Part shown: positions 18,334-28,402 of the stretch, piece by piece
Position numbering within the stretch: position 1 is the stretch's first letter
Layout: each line of letters opens with the position of its first letter
Assembly: GCA_043744185.1 (NCBI GenBank)
Contig: JAYTVE010000400.1
Coordinates: 1-57,452, forward strand
Direction of reading: 5' to 3'
DNA: 57,452 nucleotides
Source: Gemmatimonadota bacterium
GTDB taxonomy: Bacteria; Gemmatimonadota; Gemmatimonadetes; Gemmatimonadales; Gemmatimonadaceae
The notes under the pieces: model-generated
What the model was told of the DNA's origin: nothing
Seen by the model: the letters and a program-made list of their open reading frames with translations, nothing else
Database searches by the model: none
Made by a program: the position numbers and the translations under genes

Positions 18334-18442
18334 AAATCTGCCCGGTTGAACAGACCTGCTCCGAGCGGTAGACGCTCGACCTGCGCGGGCGCATTATTCC
18401 TGAGTGAGTTCGAACGCCCCAACCATTTCGCCATCTTTCCGC

Positions 18443-19549
18443 ATGCACGTTGTTGTACTGAAGGAGACCGCCGAGCGGGAGCGCCGCGTAGGGCTCGTTC
18501 CCGACAGCGTCGCCCGGCTGCTGAAGGCCGGCGCGAGCGTGACGGTCGAGAGCGGCGCCGGCGTCAGCGCCGGCTACACCGACGCAGCGTACGAGAAGGC
18601 GGGTGCCACGATCGCGGCGAACGCGGCTGCAGCGACGGTGGGCGCACACGTGGTCGCCAAGGTGCAGAAGCCCACGCTTGCAGAAGCTGCGCTGCTGCCG
18701 GAGGGTTCGGTGCTCGTCAGCATGCTGCAGGCGAGCACGAGCGCCGACTTGCTGCCCGTGTTGGCGGCGCGGAAGGTCACCGCGCTCGCGCTCGAGAAGG
18801 TACCGCGCATCACGCGCGCGCAGAGCATGGACGTGCTCTCGTCGCAGGCGACGGTGGCGGGATACAAGGCCGTATTGATGGGGGCCACGCAGCTGCCGCG
18901 CTTCTTGCCCATGCTCACAACGGCCGCAGGCAACATCCCGCCGGCGAAAGCCTTCGTGCTGGGCGCAGGCGTGGCGGGGCTACAGGCGATCGCGACGGCA
19001 CGCCGACTTGGCGCGGTCGTCAGCGCCTTCGACGTGCGCGCGGCTGCCAAGGAGCAGGTGATGTCGCTGGGCGCCAAGTTCATCGCGGCCGAACTCGTGT
19101 CGAGCGGCGCGGAAACGAAGGGCGGTTACGCGAAGGAACAGGGCGAGGACGAACAGGCTCAGACGCTGGCCGCGATCGGCGCCGCAATTTCCGAGATGGA
19201 CCTCGTGATCTCGACGGCCGCAATCCCGGGCCGTCCGGCGCCGCGGCTGATCACCGCAGCCATGGTGGCCACCATGAAGCCGGGTTCGGTGATCGTGGAC
19301 GTCGCCGCCGAGACGGGCGGGAACTGCGAGCTCACCCAACCGGGTGAGACGATCGAGGTGAACGGCGTGACGATCATGGGCCCGCTCAACCTGCCGAGCA
19401 CGACGGCTGGCCACGCCAGTGCAATGTTCAGTCGCAACGTCCTCACGCTCCTGCAGCACCTCGCCCCGCAGAACACGCTCACGATCTCGCTGGACGACGA
19501 GATCACGGGCGCGATGGCCGTCACGCATGACGGCCAGCTTCGCGCTTGA
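18443..19549 (+). CDS. pntAA: NAD(P) transhydrogenase subunit alpha part 1
   Basis: Alanine-dehydrogenase/PNT fold with the Rossmann motif VLGAGVAGLQAIATARRLGA. Start re-set to ATG 18443 (MHVVVLKE). Confidence 0.92.
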   Translation: MHVVVLKETAERERRVGLVPDSVARLLKAGASVTVESGAGVSAGYTDAAYEKAGATIAANAAAATVGAHVVAKVQKPTLAEAALLPEGSVLVSMLQASTSADLLPVLAARKVTALALEKVPRITRAQSMDVLSSQATVAGYKAVLMGATQLPRFLPMLTTAAGNIPPAKAFVLGAGVAGLQAIATARRLGAVVSAFDVRAAAKEQVMSLGAKFIAAELVSSGAETKGGYAKEQGEDEQAQTLAAIGAAISEMDLVISTAAIPGRPAPRLITAAMVATMKPGSVIVDVAAETGGNCELTQPGETIEVNGVTIMGPLNLPSTTAGHASAMFSRNVLTLLQHLAPQNTLTISLDDEITGAMAVTHDGQLRA

Positions 19550-19565
19550 TCCCCTCGGAGCACCG

Positions 19566-19871
19566 ATGACGACCACGTACATCCTGCAGCTCTACGTCTT
19601 CATTCTGGCCGGCTTTGTCGGCTACAGCATCATCACGCGCGTGCCGCCCCTGCTGCACACGCCGCTGATGTCGGCCACCAACGCCATCTCGGCGATCTCG
19701 ATCGTCGGCGCGCTCGTGGTGGCGGGCTCGAAGCACGGACTGCTGTCCTCGATCCTCGGCACCATCGCGGTGACCTGCGCGACGATCAACGTCGTCGGCG
19801 GCTTCATCATCACGGACCGCATGCTGAGCATGTTCAAGCACGCGACCGGAAAGAAGGAAGAGGCGAAGTGA
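19566..19871 (+). CDS. pntAB: NAD(P) transhydrogenase subunit alpha part 2 (membrane)
   Basis: 101-aa three-helix membrane protein with the characteristic LHTPLMSATNAISAISIVGAL segment. Confidence 0.9.
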   Translation: MTTTYILQLYVFILAGFVGYSIITRVPPLLHTPLMSATNAISAISIVGALVVAGSKHGLLSSILGTIAVTCATINVVGGFIITDRMLSMFKHATGKKEEAK

Positions 19872-21310
19872 CCGGCATCGGCTTCCTCTCGGTCGCAGCG
19901 ACGGAGGTGGGTGAGGGATCGCTCGTCCGCACGCTGCTGACGCAGGGCACGTACCTCGCGGCCGGCATCTTCTTCATTCTCGGCCTCAAGTCGCTCACGC
20001 ATCCCGACTCGGCGCGAAAGGGCATGCAGCAGGCCGCGATCGGCATGCTGCTCGCCATCATCGGCACGCTGATCGTCGAGGACATCGTCGAGTACCAGTG
20101 GATCATCGGTGCGCTGATCGTCGGCACCGTGATCGGCTATCCGCTTGGCACGCGCGTGCCGATGACGGCGATGCCGCAGCGCATCGCGATCTCGCACATG
20201 TTCGGCGCTCTCGCGGCGTCACTTGTCGGCATCGCCGAGTATCTGCACCGCACGGCCGATGGCGGCACGGTGCCGCGCGCGCAGATGGCTGCGCTGGGCT
20301 TCGAAGTGCTGTTCGGCTCGCTGACGGTGACCGGGTCGTTCATGGCGTTCGGCAAGCTGCAGGAGTTCCTGCCGGGCCGGCCCGTGACCTACAAGGGACA
20401 GAACGCGGTCAACATCTCGGCGTTCATCGGCGCGCTGGGGCTGTGGCTCTGGCTCATCGTCGACCCGACGGCCGCGTGGGCATTCTGGAGCATGACCATC
20501 CTGGCCTTCATCATCGGCGTCTCGATGGTGCTGCCGATCGGCGGCGCCGACATGCCGGTGGTCGTCTCGTTGCTCAACTCGTACGCGGGCCTCGCGGCGA
20601 GCGCCACGGGCTTCGCGATCGGCAACACGGTCTTGATCATCGCGGGAGCGCTCGACGGTGCGAGCGGCTTCATCCTGTCGCTGATCATGTCGAAGGCGAT
20701 GAACCGGTCGTTCGGCAACGTCATCTTCGGCGCGTTCGGTGCGGCTCCCGAGTCCACCGCCAAGAGCAACGCCGGTCTCACGGTGAAGTCGATCAGTGCA
20801 GAGGACGCCGCGATCCAGCTCGCGTATGCCCAGAAGGTGATTGTTGTGCCCGGGTATGGCATGGCGGTCGCGCAGGCGCAGCACACCGTTCGCGAGCTCG
20901 CCGAGTTGATCGAGAAGAAGGGTGGCGAGGTGAAGTACGCGATTCATCCGGTGGCCGGGCGCATGCCGGGCCACATGAACGTGCTGCTCGCCGAGGCCAA
21001 CGTGCCGTACGAAAAGCTGTACGACATGGAGGAGATCAACGCCGAGTTTCCCACGGCCGACGTGGCGCTCGTGATCGGCGCGAACGACGTGGTGAACCCC
21101 GCCGCGAAGCACGACAAGGGGTCGCCGATTTACGGCATGCCGATTCTCGACGTGGATCAGGCCAAGTCGGTCATCGTGATGAAGCGCTCGATGAACGCCG
21201 GCTTTGCGGGCATCGAAAATGAGCTCTTCTACGACCCCAAGACGAGCATGCTGTTTGGCGATGCCAAGACGTCGCTCATGAAGCTCGTGAGTGAAGTGAA
21301 GGCGCTCTAA
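19868..21310 (+). CDS. pntB: NAD(P) transhydrogenase subunit beta
   Basis: GTG start overlaps the pntAB TGA (GTGA). Polytopic N-terminus plus a C-terminal NADP(H) domain with VVPGYGMAVAQAQH and GANDVVNPAA. Confidence 0.95.
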   Translation: MTGIGFLSVAATEVGEGSLVRTLLTQGTYLAAGIFFILGLKSLTHPDSARKGMQQAAIGMLLAIIGTLIVEDIVEYQWIIGALIVGTVIGYPLGTRVPMTAMPQRIAISHMFGALAASLVGIAEYLHRTADGGTVPRAQMAALGFEVLFGSLTVTGSFMAFGKLQEFLPGRPVTYKGQNAVNISAFIGALGLWLWLIVDPTAAWAFWSMTILAFIIGVSMVLPIGGADMPVVVSLLNSYAGLAASATGFAIGNTVLIIAGALDGASGFILSLIMSKAMNRSFGNVIFGAFGAAPESTAKSNAGLTVKSISAEDAAIQLAYAQKVIVVPGYGMAVAQAQHTVRELAELIEKKGGEVKYAIHPVAGRMPGHMNVLLAEANVPYEKLYDMEEINAEFPTADVALVIGANDVVNPAAKHDKGSPIYGMPILDVDQAKSVIVMKRSMNAGFAGIENELFYDPKTSMLFGDAKTSLMKLVSEVKAL

Positions 21311-21455
21311 CTGCCAGGCAGTGTGGCAGCAGCGCCACACCGACGTGTAACGCTCGCACGGCTGTAACCGACGCTGGACGGGTGCTCTTTCACTGCGGGC
21401 TCCGGACGCTCCGCAGAGGCAGGCGCAGGTGGCCAAACCAAACCCGACCGATGAA

Positions 21456-21482
21456 CGCCACCGTGCGATGTGCACGGTGGCG
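21456..21482 (+). terminator. perfect 11-bp hairpin downstream of pntB
   Basis: CGCCACCGTGC-gatgt-GCACGGTGGCG, followed by TCCTGTTATCC. A second 7-bp hairpin, CAACGAG-ttat-CTCGTTG, follows at 21503-21520. Confidence 0.5.
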
Positions 21483-21672
21483 TCCTGTTATCCGCCGCGT
21501 GACAACGAGTTATCTCGTTGAACACGAAGAGTCGAGCTTGTGCGGAAACACGAGCGGTCAAGGTCACATACCTGACATTCTTGAGTTGCTGTGGGAGGGC
21601 GAGCGAGTTCAGTCGCTGGGCTGGCTCACCCATCGAAAGTGCCGCGAATTCTGCCACCTCGCAGGAATTGCA

Positions 21673-21688
21673 CGGCAACCTTCTTGCA
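21673..21688 (+). promoter_or_regulatory. candidate sigma54 (-24/-12) promoter upstream of the fibre operon
   Basis: cGGCAA-ccttc-TTGCA matches TGGCAC-N5-TTGCW at the invariant GG (21674-21675) and GC (21686-21687) with correct spacing. Lies ~65 nt upstream of ATG 21753. No enhancer-binding protein gene is seen in the window. Confidence 0.3.
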
Positions 21689-21752
21689 CTGATGAAGACC
21701 CGGCGGAGCATCTGGCGTCCGTTCAACCCCGTACCTCACAGGAGTGCACTCC

Positions 21753-22265
21753 ATGGTTGGTCTCTTTCGTTCTACGCGGGTCCTTGCCGCTGCGGCGCTC
21801 GCGTTGGCCGCGAGCACGGGCACGGCGCGCGCGCAGCTGGCCGTCACCGCTTCGGTGAATCCGGCCCTCGCCGTGACCAGCCCCGCCGGACTCGACTTCG
21901 GCGCCGTAACCAAGCCCTCCGTCACGACGATCGCGTTCAACGCGGCGAACACCGGTATCCTGCAGATCGTCGGCGCGCAGAACGCCGACATCCTCGTCAC
22001 CTTCCCGCTCACCGTCACGTTCAACGGCCCGGGTACCCCGCCGGTGTACGCCGTACTGCCGAGCTCGGTGGGCGCCAAGACGATCTCGAGCGGCACCTGC
22101 GATCGCCCGGGCGTCTCCGGTGTTGACGTCACGACCGGCACGCTCAACCCGAACATGGGTTCGGGTGGCATCCTCTGTTATACGGTCGGTGGTCGTCTCA
22201 CCACGACGAACGCCACGACGAGCGGTGTCTTCAGCGGCACGCTGGTCCTGACCGTCAGCTACTAG
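21753..22265 (+). CDS. secreted fibre subunit, DUF4402 / spore-coat-U-like (putative major pilin)
   Basis: AGGAG 8 nt upstream of ATG 21753. Signal peptide MVGLFRSTRVLAAAALALAASTGTARA/Q. Ser/Thr/Val/Gly-rich all-beta sequence with one Cys pair and the C-terminal motif GVFSGTLVLTVSY, typical of DUF4402/SCPU subunits. Confidence 0.7.
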   Translation: MVGLFRSTRVLAAAALALAASTGTARAQLAVTASVNPALAVTSPAGLDFGAVTKPSVTTIAFNAANTGILQIVGAQNADILVTFPLTVTFNGPGTPPVYAVLPSSVGAKTISSGTCDRPGVSGVDVTTGTLNPNMGSGGILCYTVGGRLTTTNATTSGVFSGTLVLTVSY

Positions 22266-22314
22266 TCGTCTCGCCAGGGAGTCGGCGCGTTGCGTCGGCT
22301 CCGCCCCACCCCTG

Positions 22315-22353
22315 ATGGTCGGCCCTGTCGCGCGCGCGCGCTGGGCCGACCAT
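22315..22353 (+). terminator. intra-operon stem-loop after the first subunit gene
   Basis: Perfect 11-bp arms ATGGTCGGCCC / GGGCCGACCAT around a 17-nt (CG)n loop. Sits 50 nt after the pilin stop and 30 nt before the next gene. Confidence 0.55.
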
Positions 22354-22382
22354 TTGGCTATCAGGCCTCGACTCGCGCATCG

Positions 22383-22958
22383 ATGATTCGCTTCCTCAAG
22401 CATTGGCTGCGTTGCACCTCCATGCTCCGCCCGCGGGCGGTGTGGCGCGCTGGTGCGTGGGGTTGGGTGTTGTCGGTCGCGGGCGCGGCGCTGGCAAGCG
22501 CACCTACAGCGCACGCGCAACCCGGCGTGCAGTCGGTGCTGACCGCGACGGTCCTCGTGTTGCCGCTCCGTCCGCTCGACTTCCAAGCCGTGCTGCCCGG
22601 CATCGGCAAGAGCGTGGACGCACTCGATCCGCACGGCGGCGTGCTCGAACTGCGCGGCGACCCGACGCGCCAAGTCCGCATCACCCTCACCCTTCCGCCC
22701 GTGATCGTGACCACCGGTGGCGTCTTCATGCCAATCACGTACGGTACCAGCGACGCCATCCTTTCGACCGTGTTCGACCCGACGATCGGCACGCGTTTCG
22801 ATCCGAATGCAGCGCGACTCGCGTGCTTCAATCCGGTGACCGGCTCGCTCTTCGTGTTTCTCGGGGGTCGCGTCCTGCCGCGCCCGACGCAGCGTCGGGG
22901 CGACTATACCGGCACCGTGGTCGCGAACGTGACGTACACGGGGGCACCATGCCCGTGA
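22383..22958 (+). CDS. second DUF4402/SCPU-like fibre subunit (minor or tip subunit)
   Basis: Signal peptide ...WGWVLSVAGAALASAPTAHA/Q (alternative ATG at 22422). All-beta sequence with the same C-terminal motif class as the first subunit (GDYTGTVVANVTYTG). Confidence 0.65.
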   Translation: MIRFLKHWLRCTSMLRPRAVWRAGAWGWVLSVAGAALASAPTAHAQPGVQSVLTATVLVLPLRPLDFQAVLPGIGKSVDALDPHGGVLELRGDPTRQVRITLTLPPVIVTTGGVFMPITYGTSDAILSTVFDPTIGTRFDPNAARLACFNPVTGSLFVFLGGRVLPRPTQRRGDYTGTVVANVTYTGAPCP

Positions 22959-23788
22959 CGCGCCGCGGCCCCTGGTGCGCGCTACTCCTCGCGACGCTGT
23001 GCGCGGTGGGAACGGCGCGCGCGGTGCTCGTCTCGCCACTCGCGATCTTCTTGGACGGCCAGACGCGCACAACCGAGGTGATGCTTGCGAATTCCGGTGC
23101 CACACCTGAGGAAGTGACCATCGATGTGCGCTACGGCTTTCCCACTACCGACACGCTCACGGAAACGATCGCGACGCCCACCTTCGCGCCCGACAGCGTG
23201 CTCGCCTCGGCGCCGTCGGCCGCGCGCTTCGTGCGCGTCTTTCCGCGGCGGGTGGTGCTGCAGCCAGGCCAGACGCAGCTCGTTCGCGTCTTCGCGTCGC
23301 CGCCGCCGGGGCTCGCAGACGGCGAGTACTGGGCGCGGTTCATGGCGACATCGAAGCAGCTGCCCGACACGGCGAAAAAGGAGACCGACCAGGTCGCCAT
23401 CACCTTCGCGATCGTGACGAGCATTCCGGTCTGGTACCGGAAGGGCGCCTTGAAGACGTCCATCGCGATCGACACGCTCACCGCCCGTGTCACGCGCGAC
23501 ACGCTCGAGGCGCGCGCGATGCTGACGCGCGGCGGATCCGCCAGCTGGCTCGGCACCGCGACGTTCACGCTCGCCGACGGAAAGGGGCGCACGGTGCGCG
23601 AGTGGCCGGTGATGACGGCCATCTTCCCCGCGCAGTACAAGCGTCGCTTCCGCTGGTCGCTCGAAGGCGTGGTCCCGGGTGCGTACACGCTGACGGCGTC
23701 GCTCAAGACCACGCGCGCGGACCTCCGCCCGCAGGACATTCTGTCGGCGCCAGAGGCGGCGCGCACCATTCCGGTCGTGGTGCCCTAG
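22949..23788 (+). CDS. PapD-like periplasmic pilus chaperone
   Basis: ATG 22949 overlaps the preceding gene by 10 nt. Signal peptide, then VLVSPLAIFLDGQTRTTEVMLANSGATPEEVTIDVRY and RVFPRRVVLQPGQTQLVRVF, the pattern of the PapD N-terminal Ig domain, followed by a second beta domain. The 461-aa track ORF is an extension. Confidence 0.7.
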   Translation: MPVTRRGPWCALLLATLCAVGTARAVLVSPLAIFLDGQTRTTEVMLANSGATPEEVTIDVRYGFPTTDTLTETIATPTFAPDSVLASAPSAARFVRVFPRRVVLQPGQTQLVRVFASPPPGLADGEYWARFMATSKQLPDTAKKETDQVAITFAIVTSIPVWYRKGALKTSIAIDTLTARVTRDTLEARAMLTRGGSASWLGTATFTLADGKGRTVREWPVMTAIFPAQYKRRFRWSLEGVVPGAYTLTASLKTTRADLRPQDILSAPEAARTIPVVVP

Positions 23789-23794
23789 CTCCGC

Positions 23795-26700
23795 ATGCGC
23801 GCTTCGCTCACACGCCTGCTGGTCGGCGCGACTCTCGTGGTCGCGTCGCTCGGCGTGCGTGGGGAAGCAGCGGGTGCACAGCCGGCCGTACGCGGGCGCG
23901 CCGCGACGGCCGCACGGCCGAGTTGGGCGCTCGGCGACAGTGCCGATGCGGACGCGATCGTGCGCGTCGTGATCGAAAACGGACCGCAGGTGACGCTCAT
24001 CGCGCTGGGCCGCGACACGATGCTGTTGCTGCCAGTGCGCCAGCTCTTTGCCCTGCTCGAGGTGGCGCTGACCGACGACGTCGACGAGAAGCGTCTGCTC
24101 GGCCTCGTCGCTCCGGATCGTCCCCCGGTCGGGTTCGACACGGAGCGCGGGCTATTGTGGGGCGGTCGCACGCCGGTGGCGTATCCCAGGGATGCGGTCA
24201 CGTGGCAGCAGGGCGAGCTCTATGTCTCCGCGAGGCTGCTCGCCGAGGCGCTGCGCGTGAAGGTGGACATTGACCAGTCGACGCTGACGGTCACGTACTT
24301 GGCGGTGCGCGATCTGCCCGTGGTGCGCCGGCTGGAGCGGCAGCGCCAGCGTGCCGCGCAGTGGCGCACCGGGGCGGTGATCCCGACCGGCGTTCCGGTC
24401 ATCGATCGTCCCGCGCCGTTCGACGGCGTGCAGATGGATTGGTCCTTTCTCAGTCCGCTCGAGAACCCGACCAACCTTTCCTCGGCGCGCATCACGCTGG
24501 GTGCGCAGCTCTTCGGTGGCGGCCTCGAGCTGCAGCAGCAGCAGATCGGTACGGAGTCTTTCCTGCGCGGGCAGACGACGTGGAGCTGGACGCGGGCGTG
24601 GCAGGATCAGAGGTGGGTGCGGCAGCTTGGCATCGGCACGGTGGTAGTGCCGGGTCGGCGCACTCGCCAGCTCGATGGCGCGCTGATCACGAACGTGCCG
24701 TACTTCCGTCCCGCCGACTACGCAACGTCGTACCTCTCGGGCGTGCTGCCCGCCGGCTGGGAGGTCGACGTGCAGCGCTACGGGCTGCCCCTCGCGAGCC
24801 TCCATCCCGACGCGAACGGCAATTGGCGGTACGAAGTGCCGGTGAGCTACGGCCCGAACGAAGTCGAACTCGTGGCCTATGGCCCGGGCGGCGCGAGCCG
24901 CCGCTGGCGCGCGAACGTGGTCGTGCCATTCGAGCGGCTGCAGCAGGGGCGCTTCGAGTATGTGGCCGGGGCCGGGGCGTGTCGCTTCGATCTCTGTCAG
25001 CGCGCGGCGAACGTGGATCTGCGCTACGGCCTCACCGACCAACTCACCCTGCAGGGTGGCACCAGCGAATACGCGCTGCTCGGTGGCAAGTCCGTCTCGA
25101 ATCCGTTTCTGCTGGCCGCGTATGCCGTGCGTCCGAACTTCAACGTGATCGCCGAGGTCGTGGGCGGCGGCTACACGCGCGCCGAAGCGGACTACCAGCC
25201 GACGACCGACTTCCGGATCACGGTCAGCGGGGCGCAGTTCGACACGACGATGTCGAGCCTCTTCGTCAATCGCCTGCGTTCGCGCTCCCGAGCGGATGCG
25301 CGCGTGTTCTGGCGTCCCTCCGAGGAGAACCGCGGTCTCTGGTTTGCGCTGCAGCTCTCTCGCGAAGAGCGCGGCGTGGTGAGCACGGAATCGCAGCAGT
25401 TGTCGGCGTCGTACCTGCGCGGACCGATGCGCCTGCAGGGCGGCCTGCTCTTCGATCGCACACAACTCGCCGGTGCGGCGAGTGCGTTCCAGCGTGTGCG
25501 TACGGAGCTCACCGTCGAGAGCAGCCTGCTGTCGCCCTGGAAGTTCACGCGCGGTCTCTACGGCCGCGCGACGACGCTCCTCGACGCCGATGGCTCGGTC
25601 GCGCAACTCTCGGCGAGCGTGTTCAACGCCGTCTCGCGCCGCTTCCGTTTTGAAGGGGGCATGCAGTGGGTTCGCGGCCTGAACACGCCGGTGGTGACGC
25701 TGCAGATGCAGGCCAACCTGCCGACCTTCCAGGCGGTCAGCACGATGCAGCAGGCTGGTGGCACCTTGGTCGGCGGGCAGACCTTCTCCGGCACGGCTGG
25801 CTACGACATAGGCACGCACAAGGTGAGTGTCGGCAATGATCTCGCCAACGGGCGCGGTGTCGGGTACGGCGCCGTCCAGGTGGACGCCTTCCTCGACGTG
25901 AACGGCAACGGCCAGCGTGATGCCGACGAGCCGCCGGTGCCAAACGTGAAGGTGACGATCGGTTCGCAGGGCGCGACGACCGACGCACTGGGCCTGGCGA
26001 CGGTGCGCACCCTCAATGCCTACGTCGCCTCGTATGTCGAGGTGGACACGGCGGGGCTGCCGAACCCGATGTGGGTGGTGGAACATCCCTTCATTGCCGT
26101 CGTCGTACGTCCGAATTCCGCGACGCGCCTCGCGGTGCCGATCCGTCCGGCAGGTGGCATCATCGGCCGCCTCGAATTCAGCGATGGCAGCGTCGGGCCC
26201 ACGGGCGCAGAGATCGAGCTGGTGAATGTGGAATCGCGCGAGGCACGCCGCGCGGTCACCTACTCGGACGGCTCGTTCGAAGCGTACAAGCTGCCGCCGG
26301 GACGGTGGGAGATCCGTCCATCGAATGCGACGTTGCGACGCACGCACTCGCGCGTGGACGTGGCCGTCGTGGATGTCACCTCAAACGGAGTCGAAGGCTT
26401 CCTCGAGACCGTGACGCTGCAGCTGATGCCCGTGCTCGTTGCCCCGCCGGCGGCTCTGCCCTCGATGCTGCGCCTCATGCCAGAACCGATCATGCGGCCC
26501 GACACGGCACGCCGACTCGACCTCCCGGTGCCGGCGCGTCCACGTCGCTCGGCGCTCGAATTGCGCGAGTTCGCGGCGGCGCGCATGCGCCTCGTGATCG
26601 CCGCTCGCGCCGAGGCACGTGCTGCGGCAGTGCGTGCGCGGCTTGCGGCGCCCGCGGCGGTTGCACCGGTGGTCTCTCGTGCGGTGGTACCGACGGCATC

Positions 26701-27226
26701 GCGTCCGGTACCCGCCCCGATGACGCCGCGCGCACCGGCGCGCGTGATCCCGCGTTCGCCTTTGTCGCCCGATGCGCGGCCGGGGGCGCCGCGTCCGCGC
26801 GCTGTTCGTCCGGTTCCGGGCAGGGCAGCGCCCTCGCGCGCCGTGCCGCCGCGTGCTGCGCCGGTGGGTCCCGACGCTCGTCCCCGGCCGGTTCGTCCGG
26901 CACCGCGCGATGGTGCGCTTCCAGCGCCGCGTGCCACCGCGCCGTCCGCCGCGCGCACGTCGGTGCCACGCGCCGCTACGCCGTCCGCCCCGCGTTCGGC
27001 GGTGCCACGCGCCGTAGCTCCGCGAGTACCGTCTCGCACCACGCCGTCGGCGCCATTCTCGCCGGACGCACGCCCCACCGCGCCACGACCGCGCGCGCGT
27101 CCGGCGCCTGCACCGACGGGCCCTGCTGCTGCCGCACCTCGGGGCACGGCGCCGAGAGGGCCGGGCGCATTGCCCAAGTCTCCCAAGTCCCCAACACGCG
27201 GCAGCACGGTCGTGCGTCCGGAATAG
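23795..27226 (+). CDS. usher-like outer-membrane assembly protein with extra C-terminal beta-sandwich domains and a Pro/Arg/Ala-rich tail
   Basis: Signal peptide MRASLTRLLVGATLVVASLGVRGEAAGA. The N-terminal domain resembles usher NTDs (VVIENGPQVTLIAL...VKVDIDQSTLTVTY). A plug/middle-like segment follows (GWEVDVQRYGLPLAS...VPVSYGPNEVELVAYGPGG), within a long beta-rich region. Then come an SdrD-B/CarboxypepD_reg-like segment (VDAFLDVNGNGQRDADEPPVPNVKVTIG; GRLEFSDGSVGPTGAEIELVN...GSFEAYKLPPGRWEI) and a ~270-aa low-complexity tail. The usher call rests on position, size and these patterns, not on a search. Confidence 0.6.
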   Translation: MRASLTRLLVGATLVVASLGVRGEAAGAQPAVRGRAATAARPSWALGDSADADAIVRVVIENGPQVTLIALGRDTMLLLPVRQLFALLEVALTDDVDEKRLLGLVAPDRPPVGFDTERGLLWGGRTPVAYPRDAVTWQQGELYVSARLLAEALRVKVDIDQSTLTVTYLAVRDLPVVRRLERQRQRAAQWRTGAVIPTGVPVIDRPAPFDGVQMDWSFLSPLENPTNLSSARITLGAQLFGGGLELQQQQIGTESFLRGQTTWSWTRAWQDQRWVRQLGIGTVVVPGRRTRQLDGALITNVPYFRPADYATSYLSGVLPAGWEVDVQRYGLPLASLHPDANGNWRYEVPVSYGPNEVELVAYGPGGASRRWRANVVVPFERLQQGRFEYVAGAGACRFDLCQRAANVDLRYGLTDQLTLQGGTSEYALLGGKSVSNPFLLAAYAVRPNFNVIAEVVGGGYTRAEADYQPTTDFRITVSGAQFDTTMSSLFVNRLRSRSRADARVFWRPSEENRGLWFALQLSREERGVVSTESQQLSASYLRGPMRLQGGLLFDRTQLAGAASAFQRVRTELTVESSLLSPWKFTRGLYGRATTLLDADGSVAQLSASVFNAVSRRFRFEGGMQWVRGLNTPVVTLQMQANLPTFQAVSTMQQAGGTLVGGQTFSGTAGYDIGTHKVSVGNDLANGRGVGYGAVQVDAFLDVNGNGQRDADEPPVPNVKVTIGSQGATTDALGLATVRTLNAYVASYVEVDTAGLPNPMWVVEHPFIAVVVRPNSATRLAVPIRPAGGIIGRLEFSDGSVGPTGAEIELVNVESREARRAVTYSDGSFEAYKLPPGRWEIRPSNATLRRTHSRVDVAVVDVTSNGVEGFLETVTLQLMPVLVAPPAALPSMLRLMPEPIMRPDTARRLDLPVPARPRRSALELREFAAARMRLVIAARAEARAAAVRARLAAPAAVAPVVSRAVVPTASRPVPAPMTPRAPARVIPRSPLSPDARPGAPRPRAVRPVPGRAAPSRAVPPRAAPVGPDARPRPVRPAPRDGALPAPRATAPSAARTSVPRAATPSAPRSAVPRAVAPRVPSRTTPSAPFSPDARPTAPRPRARPAPAPTGPAAAAPRGTAPRGPGALPKSPKSPTRGSTVVRPE

Positions 27227-27348
27227 GCCGCGGCACGCTTGTGCGGGTGTCCGCTCGCGAGCGCGCGGGCTAGTTTCCGCGAGCAATGCTGACCTTCCCG
27301 GCAGCGCGTCGATGACGCGCGCTCGGGCGCTGATCTTCCGCGTCTTCC

Positions 27349-28119
27349 GTGTACGACATGCTCGCATTCGGCAGTTGGGCCACCGTCTGGTGGAAGCCCG
27401 TCCTGTTCCTGCTGGTCGCGGGGCACCTCACGAACATCTGTGTGACCGTGTTCCTGCACCGGGCGCAGACGCATCGAAGCGTGCAGCTTCATGCGCTGGC
27501 GTCGATCCCGATGCGGCTCTGGCTGTGGCTGACCACGGCCACCGTGACCAAGGAGTGGGTGGCGTGCCATCGCAAGCACCACGCCTTTGCTGATCGCGAG
27601 GGTGATCCGCACTCGCCCGTGGTCGCCGGGCTGCGCAACATCGTCCTCAAGGGTGCCTTCTACTACCGCACAGCGGTGCGCCAGGAAGGGGTGCTCGAGA
27701 AATACGGCAAGGGCACGCCCAACGACTGGCTGGAGCGGCACCTGCTGACGCGCCGCAGCTCGCTCGGCATCGTCGTGATGGCCGCCTTCGATCTCTGGTT
27801 TTTTGGTTGGGTTGTGGGCCCCGTGGTGTGGGCCGCGCAGATGATCTGGATCCCGTTTTGGGCCGCCGGCATCATCAATGGCGTGGGCCACGCGCTCGGC
27901 TACCGCAATCACGACGTGAAGGATGCGAGCCGGAACATCACCCCGATCGGCATCATGATCGCGGGCGAGGAGCTCCACAACAACCATCACGCCGACCCGC
28001 ACAGCGCGAAGTTCAGCCATCGCTGGTTCGAGTTCGACATCGGCTGGATGTACATCCGCCTCCTGTCGTTCCTGGGCCTCGCCCGCGTGGCCTACGCGCG
28101 CGAAGGGCTGACGGAGTAG
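27349..28119 (+). CDS. membrane acyl-CoA/acyl-lipid desaturase (delta-9-type)
   Basis: Three histidine boxes, HRAQTHR, HRKHH and HNNHH, in the canonical order, plus hydrophobic helices. Confidence 0.88.
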   Translation: MYDMLAFGSWATVWWKPVLFLLVAGHLTNICVTVFLHRAQTHRSVQLHALASIPMRLWLWLTTATVTKEWVACHRKHHAFADREGDPHSPVVAGLRNIVLKGAFYYRTAVRQEGVLEKYGKGTPNDWLERHLLTRRSSLGIVVMAAFDLWFFGWVVGPVVWAAQMIWIPFWAAGIINGVGHALGYRNHDVKDASRNITPIGIMIAGEELHNNHHADPHSAKFSHRWFEFDIGWMYIRLLSFLGLARVAYAREGLTE

Positions 28120-28123
28120 CGGC

Positions 28124-28402
28124 ATGGCTGACGTGACCTGCCGTCGTTGCGGCAACACACGCGCCGGGTTCGAGAAGGCGCCGTTTCCCGGTGCGATCGG
28201 TGCCCGCATTCTCGAGGGCACGTGCCAGGAGTGCTGGGAGGAGTGGAAGAAGCAGCAGACGATGCTCATCAACCACTACGGACTCAACGTGATGGATCCG
28301 CAGGCGCGGAAGTTCCTCACGCAAAACATGGAGGCGTTCCTCTTCAAGACGGGGAGCAACGCCGACGTGGACACCACCAAGCAGGGCAGCATCAACTGGT
28401 GA
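28124..28402 (+). CDS. yggX: Fe(2+)-trafficking / oxidative-damage protection protein
   Basis: 92 aa. ...ECWEEWKKQQTMLINHYGLNVMDPQARKFLTQNMEAFLF closely mirrors the YggX core (W..W...QTMLINE..LN......R..L...M..FLF). Confidence 0.9.
   Translation: MADVTCRRCGNTRAGFEKAPFPGAIGARILEGTCQECWEEWKKQQTMLINHYGLNVMDPQARKFLTQNMEAFLFKTGSNADVDTTKQGSINW

Follow-up and report, generated by a model that had tools for sequence, protein, structure and literature searches.

We analysed a 57,452-nucleotide stretch of DNA from a Gemmatimonadota bacterium (contig JAYTVE010000400.1, the window hereafter, G+C ~67%) and describe here a group of four genes, g1 to g4, that probably encodes a very divergent chaperone-usher (CU) assembly system. 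The four open reading frames (ORFs) lie on the forward strand and span 21753-27226, as the original prediction had it; the translations agree, and independent gene calls on a second contig with identical proteins give the same lengths of 170, 191, 279 and 1143 amino acids (aa). g1 (21753-22265, 170 aa, with an AGGAG 8 nt 5' of its ATG) and g2 (22383-22958, 191 aa; a second possible ATG lies at 22425) encode secreted subunits of the DUF4402 type, g3 (22949-23788, 279 aa) encodes a predicted two-domain PapD-like periplasmic chaperone and g4 (23795-27226, 1143 aa) a predicted outer-membrane usher. The genes had been called tightly spaced, which is true of g2/g3, whose overlap is exactly the predicted 10 nt (ATG of g3 at 22949-22951, TGA of g2 at 22956-22958), and of g3/g4 (6 nt), but only partly of g1 and g2, which are 117 nt apart. 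All four products have signal-peptide-like starts (TARA/QLAV in g1, TAHA/QPGV in g2, TARA/VLVSP in g3 and AAGA/QPAV in g4, the slash marking the predicted cleavage).

An AlphaFold2 (AF2) model of g4 (aa 1-880, 23 homologues; predicted local distance difference test, pLDDT, 79.9; predicted template modelling score, pTM, 0.62) runs in order through a mixed domain (52-170), a helix (175-191), six long strands (209-299), six short strands (308-377), eighteen long strands (387-671) and two beta-sandwiches (691-770 and 776-879). DSSP assignment on the model gives a total of 24 long barrel strands, the sixth and seventh of which are separated by an insert. The predicted features are an N-terminal periplasmic domain (23948-24304, aa 52-170, followed by the helix 175-191), a translocation barrel (24419-25807, aa 209-671), in which strands 13 and 14 are separated by a short helix (486-490), and a plug-like insert of six short strands (24716-24925, aa 308-377), all on the forward strand. 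This topology (24 strands, the insert between 6 and 7, the short helix between 13 and 14) is the one described for PapC and FimD. The motifs GWEVDV (aa 321-326) and YGPNEVEL (aa 352-359), which had been likened to usher plug and middle modules, are both present and both lie inside the predicted insert; this is the most conserved stretch of the g4 family and the source of the pattern for our genome scan.

Comparison of the g4 model to the PDB with Foldseek placed FimD/PapC ushers in all of the best 19 matches (E 1.1e-28, for 3rfz_B, to 6e-09), with template modelling (TM) scores normalised to the target of 0.4-0.6 and ~12-14% identity in the structural alignments; the FimD/PapC translocation domains 2vqi, 3ohn and 3fip were matched at E 1e-14 to 6e-09. 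TonB-dependent receptors and LptD appeared only from E 6e-06 to 1e-4, with TM ~0.2, matches ~20 orders of magnitude weaker than those to ushers. By its predicted fold, g4 is an usher, as its first description as a usher-like signal-peptide protein of 1143 aa had proposed. A TonB-dependent receptor (22 strands, N-terminal plug), which had been named as what the protein might turn out to be if it lacked a 24-strand usher barrel, and LptD (26 strands) were both considered and rejected in view of the 24 predicted strands, the internal insert and the Foldseek result.

The AF2 model of g3 (42 homologues, pLDDT 88.3) consists of two all-beta domains, 27-165 and 170-278. Its best Foldseek matches in the PDB, among them 9fxb_C and 3sqb_C, are all periplasmic pilus chaperones (FimC, CupB2, CfaA, CsuC, PapD and Caf1M, E 4e-9 to 1e-7), so that the reading of 22949-23788 as a two-domain PapD-like chaperone is borne out by both the model and the matches. 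CU chaperones as a whole have a single invariant residue, the proline responsible for the kink in strand D1 (Pro59 in CsuC, PMC4654587). P99 of g3 is invariant in the 42 homologues, lies between the predicted short strands 95-98 and 101-104 and corresponds roughly to position 57 in the Pfam PapD_N alignment; it is the likely counterpart of that proline, an equivalence drawn from alignment and secondary structure rather than from superposition. Also invariant in the same homologues are the block G125-E-Y-W-A-R130, in the predicted F1 strand, and R256 in domain 2. Columns 147, 149, 151, 153 and 155 are hydrophobic in 79-100% of the sequences, against 2-38% for the columns between them, and this alternating stretch (147-155) has the pattern of a G1 donor strand. 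In non-classical chaperones the carboxylate of the subunit is anchored by an F1 Arg of domain 1 together with a domain 2 Tyr/Arg (R89, Y196 and R174 in CsuC, PMC4654587). At the positions aligned with FimC, in an alignment that is not itself significant, the carboxylate-binding Lys is replaced by Pro in g3 and the A1 strand lacks an Arg. Because of these two differences and the invariant R130, g3 looks non-classical, like the archaic and alternative chaperones with an F1 arginine, a class assignment made from anchor residues in alignment and not from residue superposition.

A scan of one genome per GTDB species returned 171 relatives of the usher, the best 80 of which are all in Gemmatimonadota metagenome-assembled genomes, the closest being 87% identical; L001-L080 are the related loci referred to below. 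Gene order was counted in the 59 Gemmatimonadota loci with enough upstream sequence. With S for subunit, C for chaperone and U for usher, the orders are SSCU (34), SSCSU (19), SSSCU (3) and other (3), and the order subunit(s)-chaperone-usher is kept in at least 58 of the 59. Two distant metagenomic loci keep the same pattern. The first (L081 145-9798, on a metagenome scaffold, relative P0026) has seven tandem DUF4402 genes, a 327-aa protein and a 1265-aa usher homologue, and the second has a DUF4402 gene, a 281-aa protein, a 151-aa protein and a 943-aa usher homologue. The L081 set, in which a chaperone-like and an usher-like gene come after the seven DUF4402 genes, adjoins a gene for a 1717-aa CLIPPER/CarboxypepD_reg protein and is an expanded version of the system.

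A tblastn search with a DUF4402 protein of a distant locus led to the 1.16-Mb plasmid of Novosphingobium sp. THN1 (NZ_CP028348.1, record 61141-67161, L084). Two DUF4402 genes (65 and 102 bits) accompany there a g3 homologue of 302 aa (hhalign 98.1%, E 8.7e-14) and a 1306-aa protein whose homology to g4 covers residues 445-1289 (hhalign 100%, E 1.4e-41), the latter having no match to the Pfam Usher model. In L081, L082 and L084 alike the DUF4402 genes flank homologous chaperones and ushers. The Novosphingobium usher homologue carries ~440 low-complexity residues at its N-terminus (L084 9041-10370), in place of the C-terminal tail of g4 that is described below. The plasmid is a conjugative megaplasmid of a cultured alphaproteobacterium, and this location hints at horizontal spread of the system. 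With the Novosphingobium locus, the system therefore spans at least two phyla. It had been stated that DUF4402-based versions outside Proteobacteria have no experimental description. No searchable paper mentions DUF4402, PF14352 or IPR025514, the family being without functional annotation, nor did the literature yield anything relevant that links chaperone-usher with Gemmatimonadetes/Gemmatimonadota, Sphingomonad or Foldseek; the cyanobacterial CT pilus was looked at and is unrelated. The system is not confined to phyla outside Proteobacteria, and in view of the Novosphingobium homologue the lack of knowledge extends to DUF4402 systems as a whole.

The two subunits have the signal peptides and the shared C-terminal motif ascribed to them in the original prediction. 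The motif reads GxFxGTLxLTVSY in g1 (GVFSGTLVLTVSY, at the very end of the protein) and GDYTGTVVANVTY in g2, where it is followed by TGAPCP. g2 and its close orthologues end in ...VTYTG(A/V)PCP (22938-22958), an extension that holds a Cys, which could pair with the Cys of ARLACFNP. Homologues of g1 are few and close (orthologues 58-92% identical). From the surroundings of related ushers 161 subunit genes were collected, of which 45 diverse ones were aligned (alignment A5), and g2 scores 165 bits against the profile of this alignment. DUF4402 (PF14352) is matched at E <= 0.01 by 43 of these 45 relatives (best 1.6e-8) and SCPU (PF05229) by none at the same threshold. At family level, by sequence, g1 and g2 thus appear to belong to DUF4402, as had been suggested.

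The 45 subunits share an LxFG motif and a C-terminal G-x-Y-x-G-T-V-T-L-T-V-x-Y(F), in which a Gly stands at -14 and the last residue or its neighbour is aromatic, a spacing that matches the motif of classical pilins. In 45 of 45, the first residue past the predicted signal cleavage is a Gln (Q28 of g1, 21834-21836), which might give an N-terminal pyroglutamate or have a role in recognition. Between the mature N-terminus and LxFG, the first subunit has 21-27 residues in most related loci and the second 11-15. The segment of the first subunit includes an alternating I/V-x-A-x-A/V stretch; in g1 the corresponding extension is Q28-A38, directly after the signal peptide, with alternating V31/A33/V35. 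The second subunit is shorter by ~12 N-terminal residues (L005-L080, e.g. L016:4143-4598, L078:4524-4979 and L015:5329-5862), as would be expected of a distal subunit that is assembled first and has no strand to donate. The third subunit gene found between chaperone and usher in 19 loci is again of the long form, and in the window g1 and g2 are both long-form. We infer that the subunits have an incomplete Ig fold, with the G strand missing, and an N-terminal donor strand; g1 is a candidate for the major fibre subunit.

Beyond the barrel, g4 continues into two C-terminal domains and a tail, all on the forward strand. Domain 1 (25865-26104, aa 691-770) is a beta-sandwich of the SdrD_B type (Pfam SdrD_B, 22.2 bits, cut-off 29.7; PDB profile match to SdrD) and carries the conserved FLDxNGNGxxDxxE (D701, N703, G706, E712) of such domains. 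This type of motif binds calcium in SdrD, and by analogy the periplasmic domain of g4 may be calcium-dependent. Domain 2 (26120-26431, aa 776-879) is a CarboxypepD_reg/transthyretin-like beta-sandwich (Pfam CarboxypepD_reg, 26.5 bits, cut-off 32.3; PDB profile match to a NOMO2 domain). The tail (26432-27223, aa 880-1143) is recognised by its composition (22% Pro, 22% Ala, 16% Arg over the 266 residues 878-1143) and by the tails of orthologues. Its motifs are PDTARRLDLPVPARPRRSALE, the sequence (F/L)SPDARPxxPRPRA in three or four copies and, at the very end, PTRGxTxVRPE, and since the end motif is conserved, the tail is translated. It is 201-281 aa long in every homologue of roughly 50% identity or more and 1-12 aa in more distant ones. 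g4 had been noted to be ~300 aa longer than classical ushers: an excess of ~270 aa exists, but an added folded usher module was ruled out as its source, the extra length being this clade-limited Pro/Ala/Arg-rich tail. The AF2 model stops at aa 880 and the composition points to a disordered tail; it should be periplasmic, because the C-terminal domains of ushers are, and a role as a spacer or in contact with the cell wall is possible.

The hidden Markov model searches proposed together with the original prediction gave sub-threshold matches to DUF4402, PapD_N and Usher and none to SCPU or PapD_C. For DUF4402 (cut-off 25.2 bits) g1 scores 18.8 bits (E 2.7e-3), with the full model (1-129 of 129) aligned, and g2 20.5 bits (E 7.9e-4). 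g3 reaches 22.2 bits with PapD_N (PF00345, cut-off 23; residues 97-164 to model 55-121), a model that is also matched below threshold by 12 of the 42 chaperone homologues. g4 scores 13.3 bits with Usher (PF00577, cut-off 27.1) over only 45 residues (715-759 to model 485-528), and this weak match sits in C-terminal domain 1. Neither PapC_N nor PapC_C was matched, and NCBIfam returned nothing meaningful for any of the four proteins. Among 49 diverse ushers of the family none reaches the gathering score of Pfam Usher, four have a sub-threshold match (best E 0.0024), 47 contain CarboxypepD_reg and 40 SdrD_B. By these sequence criteria the g4 family is outside the current definition of ushers. PDB profile searches with the g4 family matched SdrD and NOMO2 domains alone, and the one with the 45 subunits matched no pilin. 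A search of 1.84 billion representatives returned 29,750 matches, a number inflated by the SdrD_B/CarboxypepD_reg repeats of giant proteins; the best 150 of these offer no bridge to classical ushers.

Upstream of g1, a candidate sigma-54 -24/-12 element (21674-21688, forward strand, GGCAAC-CTTCT-TGCA) lies ~65 nt 5' of the start and is invariant in an alignment of four orthologues; in these upstream regions the invariant block GCGGCAAC..TCTTGC stands ~65-80 nt before the start codon. The block fits the sigma-54 -24/-12 consensus, TGGCAC-N5-TTGCW. When the 300 nt 5' of the first subunit gene were scored out of 10 against GGCAC-N5-TTGCA, an element of at least 8/10 was found in 44 of 61 related loci, with a score of 9 in 22 and the form (T/C)GGCA(C/T)-N5-TTGC; in the background, a score of 9 arises 0.01 times per 300 nt. 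The base before GG, a position outside the selection, is T at 24 of 43 sites. The window encodes no sigma-54 activator with a GAFTGA motif, and a scan of 21200-27500 gave 0 sites for sigma-70 promoters and intrinsic terminators. Rfam had no match in the upstream and g1-g2 intergenic regions, and therefore no riboswitch is indicated there. Sigma-54 dependence of the operon is a well-supported prediction from sequence.

The genes upstream (18404-21310) are presumably pntAA/pntAB/pntB-like and the gene downstream (27349-28119) presumably encodes a fatty-acid desaturase-like protein, both names coming from a reading of the translations. Profiles of all four families found no further copy of any of them in the 57-kb window. 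A 670-aa ORF on the opposite, reverse strand (26260-28272) runs across both the tail of g4 and the downstream gene (27349-28119) and is in all likelihood a spurious product of the high GC content.

We propose, with a probability of roughly 0.8, that the locus is a complete and functional chaperone-usher assembly system of a very divergent family with exported DUF4402 subunits. The proposal rests on the identity of chaperone and usher at the level of predicted folds, on the family-level assignment of the subunits to DUF4402 and on the conservation of the operon, while donor-strand complementation and exchange, a fibre as the product, the choice of major subunit and sigma-54 dependence are inferred. 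In the mechanism that we envisage, transcription would probably start from the sigma-54 promoter 5' of g1, and g1 and g2 would cross the inner membrane via Sec by means of their signal peptides. g3 would capture each subunit in the periplasm by inserting its G1 strand (147-155), with the C-terminal aromatic carboxylate of the subunit held in the interdomain cleft and Arg130 of the predicted F1 strand as the candidate anchor for it, as in non-classical chaperones. The chaperone-subunit complexes would then dock on the periplasmic domains of g4, the plug would leave the 24-strand barrel, the N-terminal extension of the incoming subunit (Q28-A38 in g1) would replace the chaperone strand by donor-strand exchange, and the growing fibre would be threaded to the cell surface.

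Several points weigh against this proposal. There is no significant sequence-level link to known CU proteins: the Pfam matches of all four proteins are under the curated cut-offs, PDB profile searches with 23 or 82 usher and 42 chaperone homologues match no usher or chaperone, and hhalign comparisons with E. coli FimC (E 0.15) and FimD (E 0.11) are not significant, though colinear. In the first of these the F1-G1 region of g3 aligns with FWMNV...LQLAIISRIKLYYRP of FimC, and in the second g4 residues 267-426, including the insert, align with the "RLTLGD"-plus-plug region of FimD. The subunit profile aligns with CsuA/B, whose query sequence was validated against 7zl4_A, over the last 16 residues only (E 0.075), and therefore no link to SCPU can be claimed. 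The structures of g3 and g4 are predictions, with a closed barrel presumed for g4, and the incomplete Ig fold of the subunits, with its missing G strand, is an assumption. g2 ends six residues past the usual terminal Tyr (...VTYTGAPCP), a poor fit to simple carboxylate anchoring. Finally, a fibre has so far been seen in no carrier organism.

Instead of a long pilus, the CU machinery could produce a surface coat that is short, amorphous or sheet-like, along the lines of the Caf1 capsule or of the spore-coat-U layer in Myxococcus, or display DUF4402 proteins as monomers at the surface, a reading that concerns the product only, overlaps with ours and in our view is unlikely. CU systems do make capsule-like and spore-coat material; the subunits of the window are small and single-domain, with no adhesin-like two-domain subunit beside them, and the number of subunit copies per locus ranges from 1 to 7, as in polyadhesin or coat systems. 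Nothing in the data tells fibre morphologies apart. The alternating N-terminal motif, conserved in the family and absent from one subunit per locus in most relatives, favours ordered head-to-tail polymerisation.

The original prediction had compared the locus to archaic (sigma-type) systems such as Csu pili, and a stronger form of that comparison would make it an ordinary archaic member of the Csu/CupE/Mcu type that drifted in a high-GC phylum, with DUF4402 as a divergent branch of SCPU. Here the gene order, subunits-chaperone-usher, does resemble the archaic layout, the C-terminus of the subunits resembles ...GDYKDTLLVTVNF of CsuA/B, CsuC is among the good fold matches of g3, archaic systems are known beyond Proteobacteria, and g3 combines the absence of the classical Arg8/Lys112 pair at FimC-aligned positions with an invariant Arg in its predicted F1 strand (cf. 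PMC4654587). Against this, the CsuC match has no edge over FimC or CfaA, SCPU is matched by 0 of the 45 subunits, the C-terminal domains of g4 are of the SdrD_B and CarboxypepD_reg type, and no gene for a two-domain tip adhesin follows the usher. Csu-type ushers fall within the Pfam Usher model, while in the present family its gathering score is reached by 0 of the 49 ushers and only four have even a sub-threshold match (best E 0.0024). A sequence tree of ushers is not feasible because similarity to any known usher is too low. On balance we consider such drift rather improbable. If g4 belonged to some other class of outer-membrane protein, such as TonB-dependent receptors, LptD-like proteins or porins bearing surface Ig domains, and its secreted neighbours were unrelated, this would explain why no curated sequence model sees an usher in it and why its only above-noise sequence matches are to SdrD_B/CarboxypepD_reg, domains common in many surface proteins, but it is very improbable in the face of the usher matches (E 1e-28 against 6e-06 to 1e-4, TM ~0.2, for TonB-dependent receptors and LptD), the 24 strands with an insert between strands 6 and 7 and not at the N-terminus, and the strict synteny and translational coupling with a PapD-fold chaperone.

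A further step beyond a divergent CU system, which we put at slightly under even odds, is that the family constitutes a previously unrecognised major CU clade, "DUF4402 fimbriae", outside the six described ones (alpha, beta, gamma, kappa, pi and sigma). Such a clade would have its own pilin family, SdrD_B and transthyretin-like periplasmic domains on its usher, the first possibly calcium-binding, long low-complexity periplasmic extensions and sigma-54 control, and would range over at least Gemmatimonadota (171 species-level genomes) and Alphaproteobacteria. If this is true, DUF4402 acquires a function and the CU pathway is extended to a further phylum.

Chaperone-usher pili are the best-understood bacterial adhesion fibres, and almost all that is known of them comes from Proteobacteria. 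The present locus would place a machine of this type in Gemmatimonadota, an abundant and poorly cultured soil phylum, and would give DUF4402 a concrete and testable function, that of a fibre subunit. Surveys based on the Pfam Usher and PapD models would probably miss the whole family, because the curated models do not recognise its parts. How the assembly is anchored and regulated is a question posed by the unusual domains of the usher, its basic low-complexity tail and the sigma-54 element, and Novosphingobium sp. THN1 is a culturable carrier of a homologous operon. For specialists the interest lies in a large family that only structure reveals, in a proposed function for DUF4402 and in a test organism that can be cultured.

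Compared with DUF4402 as currently defined, g1 covers the full model and the Novosphingobium members, which adjoin a homologous chaperone and usher, reach 65 and 102 bits, while g1 and g2 themselves (18.8 and 20.5 bits) stay short of the curated 25.2 bits. Type 1 (FimC/FimD) and P pili (PapD/PapC) of E. coli provide the best structural matches of g4 and g3. Like FimD and PapC, g4 in its model has an N-terminal domain, a 24-strand barrel, a plug between strands 6 and 7 and two C-terminal beta-sandwiches, and it shares with PapC the short helix between strands 13 and 14; the subunits share with classical pilins the Gly at -14 and the penultimate or terminal aromatic residue. Differences from the classical pili are the subunit family, the phylum and the likely regulation (the sigma-54 element), and from FimC in particular the replacement of the anchoring Lys by Pro and the lack of an A1 Arg in g3.

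Archaic CU systems are reported from alpha- to delta-Proteobacteria and, beyond Proteobacteria, only from Cyanobacteria and Deinococcus-Thermus (PMC4654587). With Csu of Acinetobacter baumannii (CsuA/B-A-B-C-D-E), CupE of Pseudomonas and Mcu of Myxococcus, the locus shares an operon layout in which a chaperone and an usher come after small secreted all-beta subunits, as well as occurrence outside the beta/gamma-Proteobacteria. g3 is like archaic chaperones in its tandem Ig fold, its invariant D1 proline, its invariant Arg in the predicted F1 strand and its lack of the classical Arg/Lys pair, and GDYKDTLLVTVNF of CsuA/B is like the C-terminus G-x-Y-x-x-T-x-x-x-T-V-x-(Y/F)-COOH of the subunits here. 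It differs in subunits that match DUF4402 (PF14352) and not SCPU (PF05229), in an usher and a chaperone that the Pfam Usher and PapD_C models do not see, in the SdrD_B and CarboxypepD_reg C-terminal domains of the usher and its 266-aa Pro/Ala/Arg tail, and in having no CsuE-like two-domain tip adhesin after the usher. In working principle the locus is closest to archaic or non-classical CU systems, Csu among them, although membership of that clade is not established. This way of working was known before, and the locus is an extension of it rather than a new mechanism.

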